Shown here piece after piece: positions 5,893-59,376 of a DNA stretch of 64,000 nucleotides. The first letter of the stretch is position 1. Each line of letters begins with the position of its first letter. The DNA is from an uncultured bacterium (GTDB lineage: Bacteria > Electryoneota > Tariuqbacteria > Tariuqbacterales > Tariuqbacteraceae): positions 2,843 through 66,842 of the forward strand of contig CAYQZD010000003.1 in the NCBI GenBank assembly GCA_964421875.1. Direction: 5' to 3'. The notes beneath the pieces were generated by a model. The model had not been told where the DNA came from, ran no database searches, and worked only from the letters and a program-made list of their open reading frames with translations. The position numbers and the translations under genes were made by a program.

Positions 5893-5932
5893 AAGTTTAC
5901 AAGTTGGAAAGTTAGCAAGTTTTCAAGTTAGA
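5893..5932. repeat. 8-nt tandem array L (AAGTTNNN)
   Basis: AAGTT recurs at 5893, 5901, 5909, 5917 and 5925. Lies immediately upstream of the gatE-like start. Confidence 0.7.
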
Positions 5933-5934
5933 TT

Positions 5935-5957
5935 GTAGGGTGGGTTCTTAACCCACC
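5935..5957 (+). repeat. PU1 hairpin GTAGGGTGGGTTCTTAACCCACC
   Basis: GTAGG head plus 8-bp stem GGTGGGTT/AACCCACC with loop CTT. Copy 1 of 7. Confidence 0.9.
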
Positions 5958-6070
5958 AAATAATTATGCGCAATCTGTGTCATCTGTGGTTAAGAAAACG
6001 AGCAGCCGAATACCATCGCTATTCTCACTTCGAGTTCCGATGACTTCAGAAGAGACCATCGATAGATGGT

Positions 6071-7123
6071 TTACGTTTGTATCGACGTCTTCGAACCGCT
6101 CATCATTATCGCGATGGGCCGTAGCGGCTCAATATTCTCAAAGACTATAACCAGCGTAGAGGTCAAGGGGACGGCTATCACCATTCCGATTATACCCCAT
6201 ACCCAGCCCCAGAAGATGAGGCTGAGAATAACTACCAGCGGAGACAGGTTCAATCCCCTCCCCATCAGGAATGGTTCCAAGAAATTCCCGAAGAACATCT
6301 GCACCGACACCAGACATACTAATAATCCAGGCACCCTCCAGGAATAGCCGTACTCCACGAAACATATCAATATCGGGAAAGCGGTGGCGATGATGGAGCC
6401 GATGTTGGGGATAAAATTCAGCGTAAATATCAGCAGTCCGGCGAATACGGCGAAGTCAACACCAAACAGGAGGATGAATCCTACACTGACCGCCGCAGTC
6501 ATCGCGCTGATGAAAATTTTTGTGAGCAGGTAGGTTCTTACCTTGGACTGAATAACGCCCAGTATTAACGAGACCCTCAAAGCTCTTTCCGTATTGAAGG
6601 CCTGATTTAGTTTATCCGTAGTCAACGATTGCCCGGAAAAGATGAAAATCATAAATATCAGCACCAACAGCACATAGCCGAGGAAAGTGAAAAACGAGCC
6701 CAGCGAAGTGGAAATGGTGGAGGTCAATGAGATATTTCCCAGACTTTTCCCTATGTCGGTGCCGGAAAGATATTGAGTGAACTGCTCCAGCGGCATATTG
6801 AGGCGTTCCAGGGTAGTTTCCAGCGTCTGCCTTAAGCTGAGTTCATAGCGGGGAAACTCATCCACAAACATATTTACATTGGCGTAAACAACCAGCCCCA
6901 AAAGATAGAAGGTGAAAAAGACCACCAGCAAAATGACGGTGAGCGAGACCGGCAGGGGCGCTTTCCTGCGCGCCGCAAAATCCACCACCGGCTTCAACAC
7001 TTCGTAAAGCAGCAGGGCGAAAGCCAGGGGGATGAAAATGGTCTTGAGCGCCTTCAACACCAACACCAATAGCACCGCGCAGATGAAGGCGAGCAGAGCC
7101 GCGATTATGCGGGTCTCTTTCAT
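6071..7123 (-). CDS. AI-2E family transporter (PerM/UPF0118)
   Basis: 350 aa polytopic membrane protein. FIPNIGSIIATAFPILI and GLNLSPLVVILSLIFWGWVWGIIGMVIAVPL are typical of the family. Confidence 0.85.
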   Translation of the reverse strand: MKETRIIAALLAFICAVLLVLVLKALKTIFIPLAFALLLYEVLKPVVDFAARRKAPLPVSLTVILLVVFFTFYLLGLVVYANVNMFVDEFPRYELSLRQTLETTLERLNMPLEQFTQYLSGTDIGKSLGNISLTSTISTSLGSFFTFLGYVLLVLIFMIFIFSGQSLTTDKLNQAFNTERALRVSLILGVIQSKVRTYLLTKIFISAMTAAVSVGFILLFGVDFAVFAGLLIFTLNFIPNIGSIIATAFPILICFVEYGYSWRVPGLLVCLVSVQMFFGNFLEPFLMGRGLNLSPLVVILSLIFWGWVWGIIGMVIAVPLTSTLVIVFENIEPLRPIAIMMSGSKTSIQT

Positions 7124-8407: not shown

Positions 8408-8512
8408 TGTTACTGTTCTCCGTTCTCTGTTCTCCGTTCTCTGTTCTCCGTTCTCCGTTCTCCGTTCTCTGTCTTCGGTTCTCGGTTTTCGGTCTTCGGC
8501 GCTCGGTGCTCA
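8408..8512. repeat. 7-nt tandem array B (GTTCTCY grading to GTYTTCG), 15 units
   Basis: A G opens every unit at 8415, 8422, ... 8506 without a phase slip. The array ends 1 nt before the stop codon (8514-8516) of the AP-family lipoprotein gene. Confidence 0.9.
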
Positions 8513-32256: not shown

Positions 32257-32340
32257 ATTCAGGATTCAGGATTCTGGATTCTGGATTCTGGATTCTGGAT
32301 TCTGGATTCAGTATTCAGTATTCAGTATTCAGTATTCTTC
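32257..32340. repeat. 7-nt tandem array C, 12 units (2x ATTCAGG, 4x ATTCTGG, 5x ATTCAGT, 1x ATTCTTC)
   Basis: Perfect 7-nt phase from 32257. Ends at the nucleotide before the OPT stop codon (32341-32343) and runs into the open frame of the DUF364 gene. Confidence 0.95.
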
Positions 32341-34546: not shown

Positions 34547-34641
34547 GTATCATTTTTCCGCGTTCCCAATCTCATACGAGGGAAAATATGCAATGGTGCG
34601 ATAGAGTCCCTGCACTCTGTCGCATTAATTTGTGAGTTTCC

Positions 34642-34673
34642 CTCATTCCCACACTCCCGCGTGGGAACGCATA
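34642..34673 (+). repeat. PU4 hairpin (CTCATTCCCACACTCCCGCGTGGGAACGCATA)
   Basis: Stem TTCCCAC(A/G)C/GCGTGGGAA. Copy 1 of 9, all in the same orientation. Confidence 0.9.
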
Positions 34674-34846
34674 TCAAGGATTGTTAGAAGCATATCTTTA
34701 TAATTTATGGTACATTTTTCACAAAATCAATTTACAGAAACAGACTGGTGAATTTAGAGGAGATTAGCGCGGATTGATGGGGGGGTAGTTCGGTTTCCAA
34801 TTAGACCAGGATGATAAATCAATCACTTATGTATCGTCAATTCATC

Positions 34847-36868: not shown

Positions 36869-37107
36869 AAGCGCTGATTCTTCATTTATGAATTAGGGTA
36901 AGGCAGCCTCGCAGGTCGAGGTTTTAATTATAGTGGCGCAAGGCGGCGAGAATAATCATCTGTGATGGTTCACGTGATCTTAAGGAATCCTTATACAACG
37001 TTTCCTAATAATATACAATTTTCTATCGTAATACACAAACGCTTATGGCTTAATATAGAGTGTTATCAATTGCGGTGTCATTCCGAGCGAAGCGAAGAAA
37101 CTCGCCC

Positions 37108-37139
37108 CTCATTCCCACCCTCCTGCGTGGAAATGCATA
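37108..37139 (+). repeat. PU4 hairpin, diverged copy, preceded by a PU5-like unit (37075-37106)
   Basis: CTCATTCCCACCCTCCTGCGTGGAAATGCATA. Upstream is GTGTCATTCCGAGCGAAGCGAAGAAACTCGCC. Confidence 0.8.
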
Positions 37140-37152
37140 TAAAAGATGCCTG

Positions 37153-41050: not shown

Positions 41051-41085
41051 ATATACTGTATCTCTAAGATATGGTAACACTTTCC

Positions 41086-41117
41086 CTCATTCCCACGCTC
41101 CAGCGTGGGAATGCATA
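41086..41117 (+). repeat. PU4 hairpin
   Basis: CTCATTCCCACGCTCCAGCGTGGGAATGCATA, followed by a PU9-like unit (about 41140-41172). Confidence 0.9.
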
Positions 41118-41192
41118 CCGCCCGAAATTATAAGCGTTATATCTGGTCTTTAGCGAAGCGGAAAACTGACATCCTCCTTGCGTATCGCAGAA

Positions 41193-42878: not shown

Positions 42879-42907
42879 TTGACAAAACTCTCAAATTAGG
42901 TTATTAT
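42879..42907 (+). promoter_or_regulatory. Near-consensus sigma70 promoter on the plus strand, pointing into the repeat chain
   Basis: TTGACA (42879-42884), 17 nt, TATTAT (42902-42907). Abuts the divergent start codon of paralog A. No plus-strand gene lies downstream, only hairpin units. Could be a chance match. Confidence 0.3.
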
Positions 42908-42908
42908 C

Positions 42909-42940
42909 CTCGTTCCCACACTCCCTCGTGGGAACGCATA
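42909..42940 (+). repeat. PU4 hairpin
   Basis: CTCGTTCCCACACTCCCTCGTGGGAACGCATA. Confidence 0.9.
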
Positions 42941-42966
42941 ATACTATTGTCATTGCGAGCGAAATT

Positions 42967-43028
42967 GTAGAGTGGGTTCTTAACCCACCAATTTACAAAT
43001 CCTTCCCCCTAACCGTAATCCCTCTTAA
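42967..43028 (+). repeat. PU1 + degenerate PU2 (start of duplicated block U1)
   Basis: GTAGAGTGGGTTCTTAACCCACCAATTTACAAATCCTTCCCCCTAACCGTAATCCCTCTTAAG. Confidence 0.9.
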
Positions 43029-43043
43029 GTCAACAAGTTCCCC

Positions 43044-43085
43044 GCAAATCGAATATCACAAATCAAAAATCGAAAATCGAAAATC
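43044..43085. repeat. 7-nt tandem array E1 (NAAAATC)
   Basis: gcaaatc gaatatc acaaatc aaaaatc gaaaatc gaaaatc. Confidence 0.85.
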
Positions 43086-43118
43086 ATAGCCACTATAGCC
43101 ACCATAGCCAGTGAATCC
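43085..43118 (+). repeat. ATAGCC nonamer block + AGTGAATCC
   Basis: CATAGCCACTATAGCCACCATAGCCAGTGAATCC. Confidence 0.85.
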
Positions 43119-43126
43119 TTCTTCAC

Positions 43127-43189
43127 TAAACCCTATACCCTAAATCCTTTATCCTTTACCCTAAACCCTATACCCTAAACCCTAAGTAA
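43127..43189. repeat. 7-nt tandem array F (TWWAYCC), 9 units
   Basis: taaaccc tataccc taaatcc tttatcc tttaccc taaaccc tataccc taaaccc taagtaa. Confidence 0.9.
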
Positions 43190-43190
43190 C

Positions 43191-43228
43191 GTGCCCGCCT
43201 CCTCCCCGCGCCCGGCGGAATTTCTTCC
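43191..43228 (+). repeat. Unit M1 GTGCCCGCC..CCCGGCGGAATTTCTTCC
   Basis: A sister copy is at 45089-45126. Both lie directly upstream of a PU1 copy. Confidence 0.8.
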
Positions 43229-43235
43229 TTGAACC

Positions 43236-43297
43236 GTAGGGTGGGTTCTTAACCCACCAATTTACAAATCCTTCCCCCTAACCGGAATCCCTCTTAA
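43236..43297 (+). repeat. PU1 + degenerate PU2 (start of duplicated block U2)
   Basis: GTAGGGTGGGTTCTTAACCCACCAATTTACAAATCCTTCCCCCTAACCGGAATCCCTCTTAAG. Near-identical to 42967-43028. Confidence 0.9.
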
Positions 43298-43311
43298 GCA
43301 ACAAGTTCCCC

Positions 43312-43353
43312 GCAAATCAAATATCACAAATCAAAAATCAAAAATCGAAAATC
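43312..43353. repeat. 7-nt tandem array E2 (NAAAATC)
   Basis: gcaaatc aaatatc acaaatc aaaaatc aaaaatc gaaaatc. Confidence 0.85.
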
Positions 43354-43406
43354 ATAGCCATAACAGCCGTAACCTGTCAGCCTTCCGGCTGATAGCCAGT
43401 GAATTC
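43353..43406 (+). repeat. ATAGCC nonamer block + AGTGAATTC (with an inserted hairpin)
   Basis: CATAGCCATAACAGCCGTAACCTGTCAGCCTTCCGGCTGATAGCCAGTGAATTC. Confidence 0.8.
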
Positions 43407-43410
43407 TCTT

Positions 43411-43483
43411 CACCAGCCCCCAGCACACCAAGCACCCAGCACCTATCCCCAACCACCAATCACCAAACACCTGTAAACCGCCA
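43411..43483. repeat. 7-nt tandem array G (NCACCAA), about 10 units
   Basis: caccagc ccccagc acaccaa gcaccca gcaccta tccccaa ccaccaa tcaccaa acacctg taaaccg. Ends at the stop codon (43484-43486) of paralog B. Confidence 0.9.
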
Positions 43484-45088: not shown

Positions 45089-45126
45089 GTGCCCGCCGGG
45101 TCCCCACACCCGGCGGAATTTCTCCC
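45089..45126 (+). repeat. Unit M1
   Basis: GTGCCCGCCGGGTCCCCACACCCGGCGGAATTTCTCCC. Confidence 0.8.
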
Positions 45127-45133
45127 ATAAACC

Positions 45134-45189
45134 GTAGGGTGGGTTCTTAACCCACCAATTTACAAGTCATTCCGGCGCAGCCGGAATCC
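45134..45189 (+). repeat. PU1 + PU2 composite
   Basis: GTAGGGTGGGTTCTTAACCCACCAATTTACAA + GTCATTCCGGCGCAGCCGGAATCC. Confidence 0.95.
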
Positions 45190-45195
45190 CTCCTC

Positions 45196-45221
45196 GTAGG
45201 GGCGGATCCCCGTATCCGCCC
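45196..45221 (+). repeat. GTAGG-headed hairpin
   Basis: GTAGGGGCGGATccccgtATCCGCCC, with 7-bp stem GGCGGAT/ATCCGCC. Confidence 0.85.
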
Positions 45222-46015: not shown

Positions 46016-46050
46016 TACCAACCACCATCCACCAAACACCAAACACCAAG
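46016..46050. repeat. 7-nt tandem array H (CACCAAN)
   Basis: taccaac caccatc caccaaa caccaaa caccaag. Ends 3 nt before the transglutaminase-like gene's stop (46054-46056). Confidence 0.85.
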
Positions 46051-46053
46051 CGC

Positions 46054-47628
46054 CTACCACCAGACCTGATTGCCGTTTTCAACGGTGAAAATTCGTTCCT
46101 CCTTATCGGAACCTTCCGCTGTCAGCCAGTACAGGAGTCCTGCAGGGACTCCGTGAAACACAAGCGGCTCAGCCCCGGCGACCGACTTTCCCAGCGACAC
46201 CCAGCTATCCCGCCAATAGAACAGTTCATACTCCTGTCCGGGTGTGAAAAACACCTTTTCGATTCCATCCGTTGAGATTACCTGTTTTCTGCGGGTGGTG
46301 GAGATTAATCTAACCGATATGGTCTTATCGCCTTTAGGCTGCAGTTCCCGGATACTGGAGTCCGTATGAAGGATGAAGGGATTGGCAAACGGCGCTATTT
46401 CTCCCTCGATATAGAGCACCGGCAGATAGGCTATATCCAACCCCATATCGGAAAAGACAACCTCTCCGTCGACAATCTTCCCCCAGTGAATCGCCTTCCA
46501 TTCCCCGGAATTGAATACACATAAATATCCTATATTTGCCGAGTCGGAAACATCTCTTGCCAAAGGGATGGTCACATCACAAACATCGACATAGTCCGCG
46601 GTGACATCGATATAGCTTTTGCCGGAAATATACTTGGGCGTCTTCTCCTGCTTCCTCTCCTGAAAGGCGAGATTTTCCTTTTGTTCGGAGAACATCTTGC
46701 GATAGACCTTTGCCAGTTTATTCGCCAGATGATATTTACTCGGATTTCTTTCCGCCCCCATGAATGGAATGACCCTGCCATCAGGGGTGACAATCGCATT
46801 CCACGCGTGATTGTTGCCGGTATTCGCCCAGTAAGGCGTGTAGTCGCTGGTGACCGCCAAGCCGTTAGCCCGCATGGCGTAGATGGTTAAATTTGTCATA
46901 TCCTCGCACCGTCCCATACGGTTTTCCAGCATTTCCGATAATCCCTGATCGACCGGATGATAATAGAAGCGCGAGTCGAATGAAAACCAGGACTTGATAT
47001 CGTCGTTGATAATACAAGCGGCTTCGATAGGGTCGGAAGAATCGCTCATCCTGCTTTCAATATCTTCATATTTATGCCAAAAGAAATCACGCCAGGGTTC
47101 CAGCGGTTCATTGCTCCCGCGATAGGGAAGAACATACTCGCAGAAACTGCTAAAAGAATGCCCCTCCGCCCACGGTTTTTCTTGCCAGGCTTTGAAAGCG
47201 TAGTCTATCTGCGTGACCAGAAAATCTAAGCTGATGGTCTGATAATCATATATCTTTTCCTTCTTCCTGAAGTCAAGTTCACCATACTGAACTTCCAATG
47301 AGTCGCAGTGTGCCTTCATCGTACTAAAATCCGGGTAGTCCAGGACATTGAAATCGATATGTGTTCCTGCGCTGTCAATCAGGTCATAAGTTACATAACA
47401 GTGATTCTTAATGTTGGCGATTAGGTAGAATAATGCCTCCAGTTTCAGCGAATCGCCTTCAAGAGTATAGTGGGATATCGCTTTTTCCAGTTCTATACGG
47501 TTTTCTCCTGCCGCCTCGATTACTTCGGTAACTACCGGCGGATAAACCGCTGTCTCCCCGCCGAATGCGCAAAGTAGAGGCAGCAGCATTGCAAGAAAGA
47601 CCAAAACTAATATGTGTCTATTATTCAT
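46054..47628 (-). CDS. Transglutaminase-like domain protein (secreted)
   Basis: The ATG at 47628 gives a signal peptide (MNNRHILVLVFLAMLLPLLCAFG). Cys-His-Asp core context MGRCEDMTNLTIYAMRANG..NNHAWNAIV. The track ORF's first 20 codons are repeat-derived. Confidence 0.75.
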   Translation of the reverse strand: MNNRHILVLVFLAMLLPLLCAFGGETAVYPPVVTEVIEAAGENRIELEKAISHYTLEGDSLKLEALFYLIANIKNHCYVTYDLIDSAGTHIDFNVLDYPDFSTMKAHCDSLEVQYGELDFRKKEKIYDYQTISLDFLVTQIDYAFKAWQEKPWAEGHSFSSFCEYVLPYRGSNEPLEPWRDFFWHKYEDIESRMSDSSDPIEAACIINDDIKSWFSFDSRFYYHPVDQGLSEMLENRMGRCEDMTNLTIYAMRANGLAVTSDYTPYWANTGNNHAWNAIVTPDGRVIPFMGAERNPSKYHLANKLAKVYRKMFSEQKENLAFQERKQEKTPKYISGKSYIDVTADYVDVCDVTIPLARDVSDSANIGYLCVFNSGEWKAIHWGKIVDGEVVFSDMGLDIAYLPVLYIEGEIAPFANPFILHTDSSIRELQPKGDKTISVRLISTTRRKQVISTDGIEKVFFTPGQEYELFYWRDSWVSLGKSVAGAEPLVFHGVPAGLLYWLTAEGSDKEERIFTVENGNQVWW

Positions 47629-47645
47629 TTTTTGATTCTTTACCT

Positions 47646-47734
47646 TGAAAATAGCGGCAGCGTAAATACGCGAGCCGTGAATTTTCATTCTAAGTTGTGC
47701 GAGGTCGCGATAGAGACCCTCGCATGAGGGTTTA
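47646..47734 (-). repeat. 92-nt structured element, copy 1
   Basis: Minus strand: TAAACCCTCATGCGAGGGTCTCTATCGCGACCTCGCACAACTTAGAATGAAAATTCACGGCTCGCGTATTTACGCTGCCGCTATTTTCA. Ends about 15 nt upstream of ATG 47628. Confidence 0.9.
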
Positions 47735-47825
47735 CCTTGAAAATAGCGGCAGCGTAAATACGCGAGCTGTGAATTTTCATTCTAAGTTGTGCGATGGTTC
47801 GCGAAGAGAATCCATCGAATGATGG
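47733..47825 (-). repeat. 92-nt structured element, copy 2 (tandem, period 92)
   Basis: The first 61 nt (47733-47793) are identical to copy 1 except for one base. The distal third carries co-varying substitutions (GATGG/CCATC/GATGG in place of GAGG/CCCTC/GAGGG). Confidence 0.9.
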
Positions 47826-47885
47826 TTTGTGTTTCGATTGGGGTATGCGCAATCTTCTAACCCTATGTTTCACCATTTCACCGTT

Positions 47886-50144
47886 TCACCGTTTCAACGC
47901 CTCCAACACCTTTTCCGGCGTAATAGGCAGACTGCGGATGCGAACCCCGATGGCGTCATAGACAGCATTGGCGATGGCGGCGGCGGTGGGAACCATCGGC
48001 ATCTCCCCCACACCCTTAGCCCCGAAAGGCCCTTCAGGGTCGATAGTCTCGACGAAAACTTTCTCAATTTCGGGAACGTCCAGCGGGGTCAGCATCTTGT
48101 AATCGGCGAAATTGGGGTTTTGGACTGCGCCTTCCTTCAATTGAATGTTCTCCAACAGCGCGTAGCCCACGCCCTGCGCCACGCCGCCTTCGACCTGCCC
48201 CTCCAGCGTCATCGGATTAATCACCCGCCCCACATCGTGAGCCGCCACGATTTTCAACACCTTGACCTGCCCTGTCTCCAAATCCACCTCCACTTCAGCC
48301 GACTGCGCCCCGAAACCGTAAGTGGCGGAAATATTCCCGTCCCAATGCTTGTCCTGCATCACCGTGGGCGGGTCGTAGAAATATTTCCCCACCACCACAT
48401 CGCCCCCCTCCCGAAAATGCCGCGCCCGAACCACTTTGCCATATGGCAGCGTCTTCGAAGGGTCGGATTTCATATAGACCTTGCCGTCCTTAATATCGAG
48501 GTTCTCCACCGGCTCCCCGGTCATCTTAGAAGCGGCTTCCAAAATCTGCCGCTTGGCGTCCAAAGCCGCCTTCACTACCGCGTTACCGGCGATAAAGGTG
48601 GTGCGGGAAGCGTGCACCCCCACATCCCAGGGGGAAGTGTCCGTGTCCTGCCAATCCAGAGTCACATTCTCCACCGGAACCGCTAAAGTCTCCGCCGCCA
48701 TCTGAGTCAACACCGCATCAGAACCCTGACCGATTTCCGTGGAACCGGAAATCACTGTAACATGCCCGAAATCATCCACCTTGACCATACACCCGCACCC
48801 GTCGGAACGGTAAATCCGCGCCCCCCCCCCCACATGAAGGCCGGCGGCGACTCCGGTTCCCCGGGCGATAGGCCCCTTACGCGCCCGCTTCTCGTTCAGT
48901 CTGATGCGCGCTGAGGCTTCTTCTATGCACTCCTTCAGCCCGCAGGAGGTGAACACCATCTTCTGCGGGGTGACATCGCCGGGGCGATTAGCGTTCATTA
49001 TGCGGAATTTCAGCCGGTCCATCCCCAACATCTCCGCTAATTCGTCCATCTGAGATTCCACCGCCAAAGTCGCCTCAGGATTGCCAAATCCCCGCATCGC
49101 CGAACCATAAGGATTGTTAGTGTAAACTATGTCCGCCTCGAATAAAATGTGCGGCACGCGGTAGAGCGAAGACACCGTCTGCATCGAAATAATCGGCGTA
49201 ACATTCCCCCAGGAATTGTAAGCCCCGTTGTCCCCCATAATGTAAGCTTGCCGCGCGGTCAGTTTCCCCTCCTTATCGACCCCGGTCTTCATATCGATAA
49301 CCATCGGCGGACGCGGCGGAGAATAGCGGAATTCCTCCTCCCGCGAATACTCCATCTTCACCGGCTTACCGGCGGCTTTCGCCAGCAAGGCGGCGATGAT
49401 TTCGTAGGGATAAAGGTCCAGCTTGGAGCCGAAACCGCCGCCGATAGCGGTCTGAATCACCCGAACCTGGCTCCCCTTAATCCCCAAAACATCCGCCATA
49501 TCCTTCTGGTACAAAAACGGCACCTGAGTCATCGAATACATCGTCAGCCTGCCGTCAAATCCCCATTCCGCCGCGCAGGCGCAGCTCCCCAAACAGCAAT
49601 GCGCCTGGAAAGGCAGTTCGAAACGCCCTTCGGCGACATACTCCGCCTCGCCGAAACCCCGCTCCACATCGCCGTAATCGTAACTGTAGCGGACCGACAA
49701 ATTCCCGGAGCTGCCCTCGTGAATCTGAGGCGCCCCCGGCTTAACCGCCTCGAAAGGATCGAACACCGCAGGCAGCTCTTTGTACTCGACCTTAATCAGC
49801 GAAGCCGCTTTCCGCGCCGCAATCTCATTGTCTGCCGCCAACGCCGCAATCTCGTCCCCCCGGCACTTCACCCGACCGAACTTCAGCGGATAATTATCCT
49901 TTCCGTAGCCGAATGGGATTTTCGGAGTGTCGTCAGCGGTAATAATCACCTTGACTCCCGGAACTTTGCGCGCCTGCTCAAGATCGATAGATAAAATCTC
50001 CGCATGAGCGAAATCGCTGCGCTTTATCGCGCCGAATAGCATCCCCGGCAGCGTCAAGTCGTGAGCGTAAACCGCGGCGCCGGCAGCTTTAGCCGGAGCG
50101 TCCGGTTTGGGGACGCGCTTGCCAATGTGGGTAAAATCAGTCAT
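47886..50144 (-). CDS. Molybdopterin-binding large subunit of a xanthine dehydrogenase/aldehyde oxidoreductase/CoxL family enzyme
   Basis: 752 aa. N-terminus IGKRVPKPDAPAKAAGAAVYAHDLTLPGMLFGAIKRS, GGGFGSK, and a C-terminal GAKGVGE motif. Confidence 0.9.
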   Translation of the reverse strand: MTDFTHIGKRVPKPDAPAKAAGAAVYAHDLTLPGMLFGAIKRSDFAHAEILSIDLEQARKVPGVKVIITADDTPKIPFGYGKDNYPLKFGRVKCRGDEIAALAADNEIAARKAASLIKVEYKELPAVFDPFEAVKPGAPQIHEGSSGNLSVRYSYDYGDVERGFGEAEYVAEGRFELPFQAHCCLGSCACAAEWGFDGRLTMYSMTQVPFLYQKDMADVLGIKGSQVRVIQTAIGGGFGSKLDLYPYEIIAALLAKAAGKPVKMEYSREEEFRYSPPRPPMVIDMKTGVDKEGKLTARQAYIMGDNGAYNSWGNVTPIISMQTVSSLYRVPHILFEADIVYTNNPYGSAMRGFGNPEATLAVESQMDELAEMLGMDRLKFRIMNANRPGDVTPQKMVFTSCGLKECIEEASARIRLNEKRARKGPIARGTGVAAGLHVGGGARIYRSDGCGCMVKVDDFGHVTVISGSTEIGQGSDAVLTQMAAETLAVPVENVTLDWQDTDTSPWDVGVHASRTTFIAGNAVVKAALDAKRQILEAASKMTGEPVENLDIKDGKVYMKSDPSKTLPYGKVVRARHFREGGDVVVGKYFYDPPTVMQDKHWDGNISATYGFGAQSAEVEVDLETGQVKVLKIVAAHDVGRVINPMTLEGQVEGGVAQGVGYALLENIQLKEGAVQNPNFADYKMLTPLDVPEIEKVFVETIDPEGPFGAKGVGEMPMVPTAAAIANAVYDAIGVRIRSLPITPEKVLEALKR

Positions 50145-50213: not shown

Positions 50214-50232
50214 ATAATGCGTTGATTCAGGC

Positions 50233-50290
50233 GTATGATGGGTTCTTAACCCACCAATTTACAAATCTTTCCGTCACTGCCGGAATCCCT
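50233..50290 (+). repeat. PU1 + degenerate PU2
   Basis: GTATGATGGGTTCTTAACCCACCAATTTACAAATCTTTCCGTCACTGCCGGAATCCCT. Confidence 0.85.
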
Positions 50291-50294
50291 CTTC

Positions 50295-50320
50295 GTAGGG
50301 GCGAACGGCAGTTCGCCCCT
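50295..50320 (+). repeat. GTAGG-headed hairpin
   Basis: GTAGGGGCGAACggcaGTTCGCCCCT, with a 9-bp stem. Confidence 0.9.
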
Positions 50321-50422: not shown

Positions 50423-51421
50423 TCACCATTCCGCATCACCGTAAAACAATCCGGCGACATCGCCTGTAATAACTCGAATCCTCCCTACCTCCGTCCCGGA
50501 CAGTTTCTTTTTCCAATTCACCGCGGCGGCGCGGCTGTCGAGCTTCACGTTCTGATATTCCCCCTGCCGCCATTCGGCGGGATTGGAGGATTCGCTGTGA
50601 GCCCTGATTTCCCCTTCAATCTGTGGTGTGTATTCGAGGTTCAGCCGCTGGAAAAGGTCTTTATAACCTTCCACCGGCGCCGCAGAAATATCCTCGTGCC
50701 GAAGGAAAACCCAGTCCGGATGCTTGTCCCGGTATTTATCCACAATGTAATAGAAACACTTCCAGGCTAAAGCCGCGCTCTCCACCAAATCGGGCTCACC
50801 CGAAGCGAATTCCTCAATCTCCCCCCTGAACGGTTCAAGGTAATCCCGCATTAACAATGGCTGGCTGAGAAAAGTGGAATGCCGGAAATTCCATCCCAGC
50901 CGCTTCAAACTGCTGACGAATGCGGAGGGATGGCGTATCATCACCACTACCCTCATATCGAAGCGCGAAGCCAGCCATTCCGCCCCCAGCAGCGCGATAG
51001 GATCCTTAACCAGCGGACAAGATTTATCCGCGTAGTGTTTAACAAAATCTACATAGTTCTCCAGCGCCGCAATCTCCGGCGCCAGATATTCCCTGGGAAG
51101 TCTGCCCGCTTCAAGTCCCAGCATTTTCACCGCAGAGGCGATGTCGAACCGAAAATTCAGTATGTTGCGAATATGCGGGTAGAATTTCTCTTCATTCTCC
51201 CGGGTCACATAAGCGAACCAGGGAAAATCCGGATTGCCTATCCCCGGCTCCCCTTCGGGATTGAAAGGCTCATGGATATATCCCGTGCCCGGCGCTAATT
51301 CCAGCATCTTCCCCACCCAGGTCGTCCCGGAACGGTGAGCCCCCGTCACTAAGATGGGCCGCTTATCGAATGCGTGATTAATCCATCCTCCTCGTTCCCA
51401 CGCTCCAGCGTGGAAACGCAT
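50423..51421 (-). CDS. Sulfotransferase family protein
   Basis: 332 aa. PAPS 5'-phosphosulfate loop ILVTGAHRSGTTWVGKML. The only canonical in-frame start (ATG 51421) lies inside a PU4 repeat copy. Confidence 0.75.
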   Translation of the reverse strand: MRFHAGAWERGGWINHAFDKRPILVTGAHRSGTTWVGKMLELAPGTGYIHEPFNPEGEPGIGNPDFPWFAYVTRENEEKFYPHIRNILNFRFDIASAVKMLGLEAGRLPREYLAPEIAALENYVDFVKHYADKSCPLVKDPIALLGAEWLASRFDMRVVVMIRHPSAFVSSLKRLGWNFRHSTFLSQPLLMRDYLEPFRGEIEEFASGEPDLVESAALAWKCFYYIVDKYRDKHPDWVFLRHEDISAAPVEGYKDLFQRLNLEYTPQIEGEIRAHSESSNPAEWRQGEYQNVKLDSRAAAVNWKKKLSGTEVGRIRVITGDVAGLFYGDAEW

Positions 51422-51422
51422 A
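51391..51422 (+). repeat. PU4 hairpin overlapping the 5' end of the sulfotransferase ORF
   Basis: CTCGTTCCCACGCTCCAGCGTGGAAACGCATA. Its reverse complement supplies ATGCGTTTCCAC.. = MRFHAGAWERG. Confidence 0.9.
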
Positions 51423-51561
51423 CCACTAATGTCGCCCTAAATAAACCGTAGGGTGGGATTAGCGATTAACTAACTATATTTACATTGATTATGTCATTCT
51501 GAACAAAGTGAAGGGTCTGCGCGTTGAATAATGAAAAAAAACCTTCATCTCGTTCACAGTC

Positions 51562-53904: not shown

Positions 53905-53951
53905 AGTTCCTGTAATATAATGAATCTTTAAACATATCTTCTATCGTTCCC

Positions 53952-53983
53952 CTCGATCCCACGCTCCCGCGTGGGAATGCATA
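53952..53983 (+). repeat. PU4 hairpin
   Basis: CTCGATCCCACGCTCCCGCGTGGGAATGCATA. Confidence 0.9.
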
Positions 53984-53994
53984 ACAATATTAAT

Positions 53995-54068: not shown

Positions 54069-54121
54069 TTCTGTGGCGCAGGATCGCCCTAAATTGTCCG
54101 AGAATTAATGTATTTAGAGTC

Positions 54122-54176
54122 GTGGGGTGGGTTCTTAACCCACCAATTTACAAGTCATTCCGGCGCAGCCGGAATC
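54122..54176 (+). repeat. PU1 + PU2 composite
   Basis: GTGGGGTGGGTTCTTAACCCACCAATTTACAA + GTCATTCCGGCGCAGCCGGAATC. Confidence 0.95.
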
Positions 54177-54364
54177 TTTCTTTCCCCCCTTAGAATAAGA
54201 GGGGCAGGGGAGATTTACTCGTTGCACGCTCCCGCATAAGAATGTATAAACCTCCAACAATCGGTAAAGTGCGTGAATGAACAATCATCTGTGCTGTCGA
54301 GTCTCCGCTTTAGACATCAAACCATAGTAAACCTCGTGCCGCAAAATCCCCCACTCTGCGACAT

Positions 54365-56699: not shown

Positions 56700-56768
56700 T
56701 GTCATTGCGAACGAAGTGAAGCAATCGGGTAATATTCCGAGTTAAGTCAGGTCTTAAGCGAAGCGTTT
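56700..56768 (+). repeat. Module C (PU5 + PU9)
   Basis: TGTCATTGCGAACGAAGTGAAGCAATCGGGTAATATTCCGAGTTAAGTCAGGTCTTAAGCGAAGCG. Confidence 0.9.
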
Positions 56769-56769
56769 C

Positions 56770-56801
56770 CTCGTTCCCACGCTCCAGCGTGGGAATGCAT
56801 A
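56770..56801 (+). repeat. PU4 hairpin
   Basis: CTCGTTCCCACGCTCCAGCGTGGGAATGCATA. Confidence 0.95.
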
Positions 56802-56809
56802 CAGACGTA

Positions 56810-56859: not shown

Positions 56860-56943
56860 GTCTTCGGGCTTTGGTCTTCGGTTCTCCGTTCTCCGTTATC
56901 TGTTCTCAGTTCTCAGTTCTCAGTTATCTGTTCTCCGTTATCT
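56860..56943. repeat. 7-nt tandem array D (GTTCTCN / GTTATCT), 12 units
   Basis: gtcttcg ggctttg gtcttcg gttctcc gttctcc gttatct gttctca x3 gttatct gttctcc gttatct. The last unit overlaps the aminotransferase stop (56942-56944). Confidence 0.95.
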
Positions 56944-58030
56944 ACAATTCCCTCAACGCCCGCCGAATATTCTCCAGCCCCTCTTTAAGTATCCCGCCCG
57001 GAATCCCATACCCCAGCCTGAAACCCCGGGGATATTCGAAAAAACGCCCCGGCATCACCAGCGTCCTATACCCTTCAAACAGCAGCCGCTGCAGTTTCTC
57101 CGCTTTGTCAGAGCTCTCGGTCAATAGAAACGCGCTCACACCGCCGTCAGGCTTGACCCAGTCCAGCTCCGCGGTGGAATTCACAAACTCCTCCACCACC
57201 GGCAGGTTTTCCCGCATCAACTCCTCCGCAGCCCCGGCGAAACTCTCGAACAGCGCCTCCTCACCCAACACTCGAGCCGCGATATGTTCCGTGAACGAGG
57301 GCGTAGTACCCACCGCCAAATCGAACGCGTCCCGCAAAACATTCGCCGCCGCACCCGGCGCAAAAATCCACCCCGCACGAAGCGGTCCTAATCCGAAAGC
57401 CTTGGTCAGACTGGAAGTCACTAAAATATTGTCCGCCAGCAGAAATGAGGTCTTAGGCCCCTTGCCAAAATAGAACTCCAGATAAACCTCATCCACCAAC
57501 AGCCATCCACCAAGCTCCCCCATAATCTGCGCCATCGCCCTTAAATCTTCATCGGGGATAAGTACGCCACTGGGATTGTGAAGGTTGGTCAATACCGCCA
57601 TCCGCGTTTCGCCGCTCAGCAATGACTGAAACTCGTCCAAGTCGATGCGCCACCCGTTTTCCCGGCGGCGAGGGACATACTTGACCTCAGCTCCCGACAG
57701 CTTGAGCGCGTTGGGGAGAGGATCGTAAACCGGAGTCTCCACGATAACTTCATCGCCGGGCGATAGTAAGGCTATGAAAAGTAAAAAGTTAGCCCCGCTG
57801 GTGCCGATAGAGGAAACGATGTTATCCTGAGGCACCCCGTACCGGAGACTAAGCGCCGCTAAATACTCCTCAAGTCCGTAACCGTGATGAACCGAAACCG
57901 GCTCCTCCCCCGGCGAAGTGTCAAGGTCGCTGAATTTCCCCGTGTAGTGCAGTCCCGACATACCCAGGTTCAGCCGGGGCATCTCCACCTTCTTTATCCA
58001 CTTCAAATAAGGAGACTCGAAATCCCTCAT
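56942..58030 (-). CDS. Pyridoxal phosphate-dependent aminotransferase (class I/II)
   Basis: 362 aa. NLHNPSG and SSLTKAFGLGPLRAGW (PLP Lys). Confidence 0.85.
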   Translation of the reverse strand: MRDFESPYLKWIKKVEMPRLNLGMSGLHYTGKFSDLDTSPGEEPVSVHHGYGLEEYLAALSLRYGVPQDNIVSSIGTSGANFLLFIALLSPGDEVIVETPVYDPLPNALKLSGAEVKYVPRRRENGWRIDLDEFQSLLSGETRMAVLTNLHNPSGVLIPDEDLRAMAQIMGELGGWLLVDEVYLEFYFGKGPKTSFLLADNILVTSSLTKAFGLGPLRAGWIFAPGAAANVLRDAFDLAVGTTPSFTEHIAARVLGEEALFESFAGAAEELMRENLPVVEEFVNSTAELDWVKPDGGVSAFLLTESSDKAEKLQRLLFEGYRTLVMPGRFFEYPRGFRLGYGIPGGILKEGLENIRRALREL

Positions 58031-58905
58031 CTCTTCCTCCCCACCGCGATTTTCAAAGCTTTCGGCAGCACCTTGATTTTAAGCGTGTTCTCCTGCCCCA
58101 TTAAATCGCCGTCCACATGAACCGGACCCAAAGGTTCGCTTATAATCGTAACTTTCTTTATCTTGAGGATAGTGGTTGCAGGAACCCGTTTGATTCTGCC
58201 CGTGAAAAGCTTGGGCAGGTGGTAAAGAATCAGCAGAGGACTCATCCGCTTGATGATACACAAATCCAGATAACCGTCCATCGGGTCGGCGTCGGGAGCC
58301 ACCCGCACTCCCCCGCCGTATTGCGCCAGGTTGGCGGCGGTGATGAGGATGGGTTCGACGTCGATTTCACCCTCTTCTATCACAATCTTCATTTTGGGAG
58401 GTCTGTAGCCGAGAAAAGACCTGATGGAGGAGACAATGTAAGAAAGAAGCCCTCGGCGGGGGCCGGCATTGAAAAGCCTGGTGATATGAGCATCCATCCC
58501 CGCGCCGCAGGTCACCAGAAATATCCGCCCGTTCACTTCCCCCAAATCCATCCAATCGAATTCCGGCTCCAAAAGCATGGGAACTGCTTTCTTACGGGAT
58601 AGCGGGATACCGAAATGACGGGCAAAACCGTTGCCCGAACCGGCAGGGACCACACCCAGAGCCGTATCAGAACCTAAAAGACCCCGGGCCACATCGTTGA
58701 TAGTGCCGTCGCCGCCAACCGCTATCACCATATCCAGCTTCTCCTCCGCAGCCTTACGGGCGTACTTCTCCCCGTCCCCCACTTTCCAGGTAGAAATAAT
58801 CTCAAAATCGTGTCCGCTGGGACCCCAGCTCTGCTGAATATAGCGGACTACTGCTTCCCAGTTCTTGATACCGGAAAATGGATTGACAATAAAAAGGACT
58901 TTCAA
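58027..58905 (-). CDS. Diacylglycerol/lipid kinase family protein (YegS/BmrU-like)
   Basis: 292 aa. TTG start. VIAVGGDGTINDV, PAGSGNGFA. Confidence 0.85.
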   Translation of the reverse strand: MKVLFIVNPFSGIKNWEAVVRYIQQSWGPSGHDFEIISTWKVGDGEKYARKAAEEKLDMVIAVGGDGTINDVARGLLGSDTALGVVPAGSGNGFARHFGIPLSRKKAVPMLLEPEFDWMDLGEVNGRIFLVTCGAGMDAHITRLFNAGPRRGLLSYIVSSIRSFLGYRPPKMKIVIEEGEIDVEPILITAANLAQYGGGVRVAPDADPMDGYLDLCIIKRMSPLLILYHLPKLFTGRIKRVPATTILKIKKVTIISEPLGPVHVDGDLMGQENTLKIKVLPKALKIAVGRKR

Positions 58906-58955
58906 TTGCGTTCTGAATTATGGAGGTTGATTGTAGGTTTAATATACATTCATTC

Positions 58956-59044
58956 TGAAAATAGTGGCAGCGCTAATACGCGAGCCGTAAATTTTCATCT
59001 TAAATTGCGCAAGGTCGCGATAGAGACCCTCGAATGAGGGTTTA
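58956..59044 (-). repeat. 92-nt structured element, copy 3
   Basis: Minus strand: TAAACCCTCATTCGAGGGTCTCTATCGCGACCTTGCGCAATTTAAGATGAAAATTTACGGCTCGCGTATTAGCGCTGCCACTATTTTCA. Lies about 50 nt upstream of the lipid-kinase TTG start. Confidence 0.9.
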
Positions 59045-59100
59045 ATATAATATTACTGCAATTAATTTCAACTGTGATAGGCAAAAACATCGCGGCTTCC

Positions 59101-59132
59101 CTCGTTCCCACGCTCCAGCGTGGGAATGCATA
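59101..59132 (+). repeat. PU4 hairpin
   Basis: CTCGTTCCCACGCTCCAGCGTGGGAATGCATA, identical to the copy at 56770. Confidence 0.95.
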
Positions 59133-59206
59133 CCATCTCCGATAACGGCTATAACGTTGCGCTATGCCTTTAGCGAAGCGGAGACCTGACAGTGTTCTCG
59201 TTTCCC

Positions 59207-59238
59207 CTCGTTCCCACGCTCCCGCGTGCGAATGCATA
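59207..59238 (+). repeat. PU4 hairpin
   Basis: CTCGTTCCCACGCTCCCGCGTGCGAATGCATA, preceded by a PU9 unit (about 59168-59190). Confidence 0.9.
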
Positions 59239-59264
59239 CTAGGGAATCTGTCATTGCGCACAAA

Positions 59265-59318
59265 AGAGTGGGTTCTTAACCCACCAATTTACAAGTCATT
59301 CCGGCGTAACCGGAATCC
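59265..59318 (+). repeat. PU1 + PU2 composite
   Basis: AGAGTGGGTTCTTAACCCACCAATTTACAA + GTCATTCCGGCGTAACCGGAATCC. Confidence 0.95.
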
Positions 59319-59376
59319 TTCTTCCTAGTGAGCTTTCAAATGAACGCCCGCTGCAACGGGATGAACCTCCCGCCTA

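Follow-up and report, generated by a model that had tools for sequence, protein, structure and literature searches.

A modular intergenic element of Tariuqbacter-like bacteria with three mutually complementary segments, probably a new family of small interspersed repeats

Introduction

The described repeats closest in kind to the element reported here are the pneumococcal SPRITE, which are terminator-like, have A4/T4 ends and lie near coding sequences, and the modular BOX (PMC3049150, PMC10969869), together with REP/BIME elements (PMC2817692). The element was found in a 64,000-nucleotide (nt) stretch of DNA (contig CAYQZD010000003.1 of assembly GCA_964421875.1, positions 2,843 to 66,842 of the forward strand), referred to below as the window, whose host is a relative of Candidatus (Ca.) Tariuqbacter arcticus (FCB group). 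An earlier note on this DNA had described a 92-nt element with three mutually complementary segments, present in tandem at one locus and singly at another, and had likened it to riboregulators and attenuators while allowing for a mobile DNA module. The second of these readings was found to be the better supported. The element probably constitutes a new family of small modular interspersed repeats within a narrow, Tariuqbacter-like clade of the FCB group, as indicated by its absence from the orthologous sites of relatives, its occurrence in both orientations, its tandems, its mosaics with other repeats, its narrow lineage and the unrelated genes beside it. It is most likely selfish repeat DNA with a terminator-like hairpin, and not a dedicated regulator of both genes that it precedes in the window. 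The family is previously undescribed and of an ordinary kind, that of the bacterial small interspersed repeats; its unusual trait is the maintained complementarity of three segments.

Copies in the Window and Structure of the Unit

A repeat finder returned a three-member family (47646-47734, 47738-47826 and 58956-59044), in which the tandem pair has a start-to-start spacing of 92 nt and the other two members are 72% and 89% identical to copy 1. A 42-nt core pattern matched the window twice at ≤3 mismatches, and gave no match in 100 shuffles. The pair went unreported by Tandem Repeats Finder, since it comprises just two units whose 5′ thirds are unlike. The full units, all on the minus strand, are copy 1 (w1) at 47639-47733, which reads AAACCCTCATGCGAGGGT...CACAACTTAGAATGAAAAT...TATTTTCAAGGTAAA in the E+ orientation and scored 112.8 bits against a covariance model; its head-to-tail partner, copy 2 (w2), at 47731-47828; and the single copy 3 (w3) at 58949-59043 (97.8 bits). 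E+ denotes the element as read on the minus strand of the window, and E- the opposite. Copy 2 differs from copy 1 by one base across the 3′ 57 nt, has an 'AAA' in common with it, and carries an A-type 5′ module (ACCATC/GATGG/CCATCG). A fourth, partial copy at 6020-6072 (minus strand; 27.1 bits, E 0.005) consists of the 5′ hairpin module and the third segment (TAAACCATCTATCGATGGTCTCT...CATCG), without the 3′ hairpin (H3), and at its TAAACC edge it contributes, or partly coincides with, the TAA stop codon of the gene at 6071-7123. The coordinates and sequences given for the copies in the earlier note were all confirmed on re-reading of the window, and the segments GCGAGG (47699-47704), CCCTCGC (47717-47723) and GAGGG (47726-47730) of copy 1, like GCGATGG (47791-47797), CCATCG (47812-47817) and GATGG (47821-47825) of copy 2, are exact.

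The unit is ~92-98 nt long, non-coding and modular. In E+, it was found to consist of AAACC[C/A]TC-loop-GA[G/T]GGT, which forms the first hairpin (H1), a TCGCGA linker, the third segment CC[T/AT]CG, and CACAACTTAGAATGAAAAT-(27/28 nt)-TATTTTCAARGTAAA; together with its edge, H1 reads (T)AAACC[C/A]TC-loop-GA[G/T]GGT. The third segment is followed by a conserved stretch, CACAACTTAG-ATGAAAAT, by H3 and by the end, CAARGTAAA. On the minus strand, H1 of copy 1 (ACCCTC-ATGC-GAGGGT) occupies 47716-47731, with equivalents at 47811-47826 in copy 2 and 59026-59041 in copy 3, and the third segment of copy 1 (CCTCGC) occupies 47699-47704, with equivalents at 47792-47797 and 59009-59014. In copy 1, a conserved unpaired linker, ACAACTTAGAA, covers 47688-47698 of the same strand, and is followed by an invariant ATG (47686-47688) that overlaps the 5′ foot of H3. 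H3 itself lies at 47646-47687, and at 47738-47779 and 58956-58997 in copies 2 and 3, respectively.

H3 is built from an invariant 7-bp outer stem, TGAAAAT/ATTTTCA, around an imperfect, GC-rich hairpin core of 27 or 28 nt. The outer stem is Watson-Crick in 76 of 77 cells of the alignment, and the sequence and register of the core vary among copies. The predicted stability of H3 ranges from -9 to -18 kcal/mol in E+ and from -11 to -22 kcal/mol in E-. The architecture is, by prediction, that of a two-way intrinsic terminator (A-tract/hairpin/U-tract); the U run is just 4 nt long, and H3 was not flagged by a consensus terminator scan. H1 and the outer stem of H3 were recovered by RNAalifold. Minimum-free-energy folds contained H1 and H3 without an antiterminator, and folds of the whole unit were more stable in E- for eight of nine copies.

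The edges of the unit are abrupt. Conservation starts at (T)AAACC and stops at GTAAA, and sequences beyond these points are unrelated between copies, which argues that no promoter lies within the unit. The start of H1 lies 2 nt inside the 5′ edge, and the end of H3 lies 7 nt inside the 3′ edge. The bases preceding H1 are GT, AT, TT, TA, AC or GC followed by AAACC. TAAA stands on both sides of most copies (a T precedes AAACC in 7/10, and the 3′ end is GTAAA) and is common to tandem neighbours. A small open reading frame (ORF) or leader peptide starting at the invariant ATG was considered and rejected, because hairpin core lengths of 27 or 28 nt put it in different frames and the ORF lacks conservation. 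The consensus of an integron attC site, of a sigma-54 promoter and of Bacteroidetes-type promoter motifs was absent from the element on inspection by eye.

Insertion into Spacers, Tandems and Mosaics

Junctions of filled and empty sites were compared by eye. In relatives with 83-84% identity in the transglutaminase-like protein (L numbers denote fetched loci), the spot orthologous to that 5′ of the transglutaminase-like gene, which follows the tandem pair in the window, reads ...AATCTAAACACAAGGAATCAAAAAATG (L023) or ...AATCTAAACAAGAGGAATCAAAAATG (L024-L028). The same spot in the window consists of ...AATCGAAACACAA, 184 nt that make up the two units, and AGAATCAAAAAATG; the sequence is conserved on either side, and the element is present in addition. 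At this one site there is no clean target-site duplication, and TAAA is missing from the empty junction.

Copy 3 is the final module of a 470-nt stack of repeats (58906-59376) that separates fpg from a lipid-kinase gene in the window. In a relative with 85% identity (L136), the fpg-kinase spacer holds 327 nt of other repeats without the element, and in relatives at 67-69% identity, the two genes overlap (L144, 9189-10879; L146, 9210-10900). Since they overlap in these more distant relatives, copy 3 lies in newly added spacer, and the gene arrangements compared suggest that a compact fpg-kinase operon appears to have been pried apart by repeat build-up.

The copies were found to be additions to the spacers between genes, either alone or in head-to-tail order, and their neighbours include stop codons, start codons, a tRNA gene and repeats of other families. 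Tandem arrays in head-to-tail order, or fragments of them, were seen in the window, L035, L105 and L026, and L136 holds one inverted pair whose members are 115 nt apart. L105 and L136 also contain variant units, in which the first hairpin differs or H3 is interrupted by other repeat families. Several short-read contigs end inside the element (L001, L002, L026, L048 and L135), as do short Logan contigs that match window proteins exactly and end in the repeat.

Distribution of the Family

The closest relatives of the transglutaminase-like protein, at 83-84% identity, are encoded in metagenome-assembled genomes labelled Zixibacteria. One of these contigs, JABMRZ010000172, belongs to Ca. Tariuqbacter arcticus bin.685, a species placed by NCBI in Electryoneota, FCB group (PMC10439189). 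Collection of copies, for which the earlier note had suggested nhmmer or cmsearch, extended the family beyond the window: at least eight further copies or fragments were recovered in three related organisms, which brings the total to at least ~12 copies in four organisms. Those of bin.685 are L035, L048, L105 and L113 (identical to L026). An ENA-assembled relative (L136/L137) was reached through homologues of both neighbouring genes and carries two full copies and one variant, and a metagenome scan with a strict 20-base core pattern returned a single contig, L001 (JACKQG010133907), with two copies within 1.7 kb.

Across 185,579 species genomes, the same strict pattern had no match. With a gapped pattern based on two invariant octamers, ATGAAAAT-N22-36-ATTTTCAARGTAA, the genome collection gave at least 104 rows; among the matches listed, four Ca. 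T. arcticus contigs were real by nhmmer and the other ~100 rows were chance. A covariance model (R1) run over 262 kb, comprising the window and related contigs, added no further copies, none was present in ~60 kb from relatives at 67-69% amino-acid (aa) identity (L144-L147), and pattern scans of IMG/VR gave only chance matches inside phage genes. Nothing in Rfam 15 reached gathering scores in the window or five loci apart from one tRNA, and relaxing the search to E ≤ 10 on 47500-48000 yielded nothing relevant, with a spurious lncRNA match only. Six-frame translations of the element, aimed at spurious ORFs over other copies, had no match in the protein database. The element shares no sequence with any described family. 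These scans placed copies only in a few Tariuqbacter-like organisms, indicating that the family is narrow in distribution; where it is present, its density is ~1 locus per 10-30 kb.

Two population variants of Ca. Tariuqbacter (L024, 14478-14560; L026, 13900-14129) were also observed to share the same Por_Secre_tail gene and to diverge wholly after its stop codon. One variant continues with a canonical terminator, and in the other a different sequence runs into a copy of the element, where the contig ends.

Position and Orientation Relative to Genes

In the window, copies 2 and 1 precede the transglutaminase-like gene (Transglut_core; 46054-47628, minus strand), with 10 nt between the end of copy 1 and the start codon, ATG 47628. 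Copy 3 ends 43 nt before TTG 58905, the start of a YegS-type lipid-kinase gene (DAGK_cat/YegS_C; 58027-58905, minus strand). The gene content of the window is ordinary and chromosomal. The placement of the element 5′ of two unrelated minus-strand genes, emphasized in the earlier note, is true, and says little on orientation, since the minus strand encodes nearly all genes of the window and the sign of the GC skew changes nowhere within it. A 544-aa call for the transglutaminase-like protein (P0001, starting at 47688 within the element) was rejected as an artefact: its homologues are mostly 524-525 aa long and align from ATG 47628, and the false 20-codon N-terminal extension results from the in-frame, invariant ATG that the repeat supplies. 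A tandem repeat of 8 nt (GTTTCACC x3.8, 47867-47896) was seen between the stop codon of a molybdopterin-binding dehydrogenase gene and copy 2.

Across all copies, E+ points the same way as the adjacent gene at eight loci (the window tandem, copy 3, window 6072, L001b before a phoU-like gene, L035, L105, L026 and L136a). It runs opposite to the adjacent gene at three: L001a, 3 nt after a tRNA gene that was confirmed by Rfam; L048, located 26 nt past a stop codon; and L136b, which precedes an arginase gene by ~30 nt. This split does not differ significantly from random (two-sided binomial ~0.23), and it rules out a strictly oriented cis-element. Random orientation relative to genes had been named beforehand as an outcome that would count against a riboregulator, and the result goes part of the way, with copies in both orientations. 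In this small sample, four loci abut a stop codon or the 3′ end of a tRNA (L136a, window 6072, L048 and L001a), and five others end just 5′ of start codons. The genes 3′ of E+ copies are unrelated; they encode a transglutaminase-like protein, a lipid kinase, a phoU-like product, a 1662-aa secreted protein and a thyX-like product.

Three-Segment Complementarity

An alternative helix can form when the third segment pairs with the 3′ arm and the loop of H1. This segment is in effect a direct repeat of the H1 5′ arm, and can replace that arm in pairing. An alignment of 12 sequences (A3) served to measure covariation. In H1, 95% of cells are paired, with pair 6-15 present as C-G six times and A-U three times. 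For the alternative helix, formed by columns 11-17 and 32-38, the paired fraction is 85.5%, compared to 43-51% in slid controls; its pair 12-37 occurs as C-G six times, A-U once and U-A once, and pair 15-34 as G-C six times and U-A three times. The number of double changes observed in this helix was reached by none of 500 shuffles. These pairing percentages, shuffles and lower controls indicate that the three-way covariation is real, and the mutually exclusive helices with co-varying segments first noticed in the window copies hold in the larger collection.

The 5′ module exists in two forms, a C-type (ACCCTC/GAGGG/CCTCG) and the A-type carried by copy 2, and both recur in different species. 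To judge from the aligned copies, the three-way covariation is that of two putatively old allelic forms of the module. The joint change of all three segments in copy 2 does preserve both pairings, as had been claimed, but is one of two forms recurring across species and not a private compensatory event. Two copies are mixed, and each breaks one helix: L035 breaks H1, and L026 breaks the alternative helix.

The earlier argument that G-U pairs point to the minus strand as the RNA was upheld for the alternative helix, where they favour E+ (8 G-U vs 2 A-C cells). The middle of the H3 stem leans to E- (1 vs 3). In most copies, the CGCGA of the linker is complementary to a TCGCG in the 5′ side of H3.

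Proposed Spread and Effects

A family of interspersed repeats would have spread as DNA, possibly by means of a transposase that is supplied from elsewhere and recognises the hairpins, or by recombination or template switching at shared TAAA edges. When transcribed, H3 probably acts as a modest two-way intrinsic terminator or as a stabiliser of RNA ends, an idea that fits the copies directly after a tRNA gene and stop codons, and also fits the finding that the orientation just before start codons is the weaker-folding one. Selection would tolerate E+, the weaker-folding orientation, just 5′ of genes. The three-way complementarity could be needed while the element spreads as single-stranded DNA, or when read-through RNA folds, and would not be a sensor specific to the transglutaminase-like and lipid-kinase genes.

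Several observations weigh against repeats of this kind. No transposase or recombinase was linked to the element, and the window encodes none; Pfam scans of 18 window proteins gave housekeeping domains only, with one protein lacking a match. Terminal inverted repeats are absent, the only inverted repeats (H1 and H3) being internal, and the single empty-site comparison showed no clean target-site duplication. The maintenance of two exclusive helices by changes at two positions exceeds the obvious need of selfish DNA, and the G-U pairs of the alternative helix favour the strand on which the downstream genes lie (8 vs 2). E+ sits 10-43 nt 5′ of a start codon at five loci, where efficient termination at H3 would silence the genes, so that H3 must be weak in E+ or termination conditional. 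The collection on which these comparisons rest comprises about a dozen copies at least.

Other Repeat Families in the Window

The window is crowded with further intergenic repeats, comprising GTAG-headed, REP-like palindromes, several other palindromic units and many heptamer arrays. The REP-like palindrome, GTAGGGTGGGTTCTTAACCCACC(AATTTACAA...), is present in seven copies, at 5921-5959, 42953-43029, 43222-43298, 45120-45196, 50219-50295, 54108-54184 and 59249-59325. It is almost identical in form to the Haemophilus REPs (GTAGGGTGGGTCTTGACCCACC) that are listed with RAYT transposases (PMC2817692), and this resemblance suggests that a RAYT-type enzyme is encoded elsewhere in the genome.

A second palindromic repeat, CCTCGTTCCCACGCTCCAGCGTGGGAATGCATAC, was located at 34631-34674, 37097-37140, 41075-41118, 42898-42941, 51380-51423, 53941-53984, 56759-56802, 59090-59133 and 59196-59239, and has ten copies if a weak one at 34548 is counted; it was also seen in L136 (3180-3630), within an element copy that is disrupted. 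TGTCATTGCGAACGAAGTGAAGCAATC and ATTCCGGCTGCGCCGGAATGAC represent further families. Tandem arrays of 7-nt units (GTTCTCC, ATTCAGG, CTAAACC, AAATCAA, ACCAACC and others) occupy 8413-8511, 32257-32337, 43045-43185, 43314-43472, 46017-46062 and 56881-56943. The heptamer CTAAACC/AAACCCT is similar to the first bases of the element, AAACCCT, and lies next to the element in L136 (3180-3400) and in L105 (after 4340).

Alternative Explanations

A portable RNA switch or attenuator is unlikely. In such a switch, the 3′ arm of H1 would pair with either its 5′ arm or the third segment, deciding the H3 terminator and with it downstream transcription; the choice of helix would free or sequester the TCGCGA linker, which is able to pair with TCGCG in the 5′ side of H3, as the complementarity seen in most copies would allow. 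The cassette would have travelled as mobile DNA before being put to use at several genes. Both helices are indeed kept, with covariation at 6-15, 15-34 and 12-37, but they do not overlap the terminator stem, the predicted folds lack an antiterminator, and neither a ligand pocket nor a conserved leader peptide is evident, the frame of ATGAAAAT shifting with the 27- or 28-nt cores. The eight G-U pairs, tolerated only on the E+ strand compared with two A-C cells, speak for an RNA, although such a bias could also arise from strand-biased C-to-T mutation. E+ ends 10-43 nt 5′ of start codons at five loci, where a constitutive terminator would be harmful; however, the downstream genes are of five unrelated kinds, three loci have the opposite orientation, and tandem duplication is senseless for a sensor. 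The riboregulator raised in the earlier note is further disfavoured by the absence of the element from orthologous 5′ regions, by the absence of the fpg-kinase spacer in distant relatives and by the mixing of copies with other repeats.

A combination of the two ideas, in which the unit would be a transposable riboregulatory cassette, is distinctly unlikely. A mobile ~92-nt module would combine a two-state switch with a terminator, and a transposase that recognises hairpins and exploits the three-way pairing could perhaps move it in single-stranded DNA form. If this were true, transcription in a little-known lineage of the FCB group would be rewired wherever the unit lands before a gene.

Quite improbable is a non-autonomous element moved as single-stranded DNA by a Y1 transposase of the IS200/IS605 or RAYT type supplied elsewhere in the genome, which would give a specific mechanism for the spread assumed for interspersed repeats. 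H1 and H3 would be the recognised subterminal hairpins, the third segment would join in pairing at the DNA level, and TAAA would be a target or cleavage motif recreated by the 3′ end of the element, favouring head-to-tail tandems. The position of the hairpins 2 nt and 7 nt from the edges, without terminal inverted repeats, is consistent with this mechanism, but H1 and H3 are unrelated in sequence, and the ends of IS200/IS605 elements usually carry similar hairpins. TAAA flanks both sides and is shared by tandem units (T before AAACC in 7/10, unit end GTAAA), yet the empty site in relatives has none at the junction. All four window copies lie on one strand. The GTAG-headed palindromes of the window, which resemble the REPs listed with RAYT (PMC2817692), suggest that such an enzyme exists in the genome; the head motif of the element is nevertheless not GT[AG]G, and no Y1 transposase was seen in the window or the fetched loci, ~260 kb in extent.

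A multicopy family of small RNA (sRNA) genes, in which each E+ unit would be an independent sRNA of ~90 nt made up of a 5′ stem-loop, the single-stranded seed CACAACUUAGAAUG and a Rho-independent terminator, with part of the units arranged like other tandem sRNA arrays, matches the anatomy (a 5′ hairpin, an unpaired linker among the best conserved parts, a terminal hairpin with a U run) and is preceded at the 5′ edge of copy 3 by a sigma70-like TTGAAA-16-TATATT ending exactly there, but it is very improbable, because no promoter travels with the unit, sequences 5′ of the AAACC edge are unrelated between copies, no promoter-like site lies 5′ of the tandem, copies abut stop or start codons and occur truncated or fused with other repeats, and the element is absent from orthologous sites in relatives. 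The sigma70-like site (10/12 matches; 59044-59071, minus strand) could drive transcription through copy 3 into the kinase gene. Three such sites occur in the 900-nt copy 3 region, against 1.1 expected from shuffles, and the one before copy 3 is at chance level.

Implications and Comparison with Known Systems

If the element is a family of interspersed repeats, as seems probable, its practical consequences concern annotation and assembly: the ATG that it supplies misled a gene caller, and the repeat breaks short-read assemblies of the clade. Together with the REP-like palindromes and heptamer arrays, it reveals a genome organisation rich in repeats in the barely studied Tariuqbacteria/Electryoneota. 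If the three-way pairing is functional, the element would be one of few mobile elements that bring with them an RNA or single-stranded-DNA switch.

Attenuators and riboswitch platforms resemble the element in having exclusive helices beside a terminator-like hairpin, in occupying 5′ leaders at several loci and in the covariation that supports both helices. Unlike them, the element is not conserved at orthologous loci, precedes unrelated genes, occurs in both orientations and in tandem, and has no Rfam match, and its alternative helices share no strand with the terminator stem.

Among mobile elements, the non-autonomous derivatives of IS200/IS605 (PATE) are similar in having subterminal hairpins at both ends and no terminal inverted repeats; as for a conserved target motif on one flank, TAAA is frequent beside the element and not universal. 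The miniature inverted-repeat transposable elements Correia, RUP and ERIC (PMC10969869, PMC3184786) are likewise short, non-coding, multi-copy and intergenic, differ in presence or absence between relatives, fold stably when transcribed and may affect neighbouring genes, whereas the element described here has no terminal inverted repeats, clear target-site duplication or known parent insertion sequence.

REP/BIME repeats, with their RAYT (PMC2817692), are hairpin-forming, extragenic, arranged in intergenic mosaics and linked to transcription termination, and are proposed to be non-autonomous and moved by a hairpin-recognising enzyme. True REP-like, GTAG-headed palindromes co-occur with the element in the window. 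The element itself is longer (~92 nt vs 20-40 nt), has no GT[AG]G head, forms tandems that run head-to-tail instead of alternating, and has no RAYT linked to it.

SPRITE and BOX are, with REP/BIME, the closest in kind. In each case, small non-coding interspersed repeats are limited to a species group and lie very close to coding sequences, have a predicted stem-loop with A-run and T-run ends, or are modular with a variable number of units (BOX), are clustered with and inserted into other repeat families, and are thought to be selfish DNA able to terminate or affect neighbouring genes. The pneumococcal repeats belong to a different phylum and have no sequence similarity to the element, and SPRITE is enriched at the 3′ ends of genes, whereas, in the small sample of loci, the element is found as often 5′ of start codons as 3′ of stop codons. 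In contrast to both, the element forms direct head-to-tail tandems of the whole unit, and has two separate hairpins together with a third segment that gives rise to an alternative helix.

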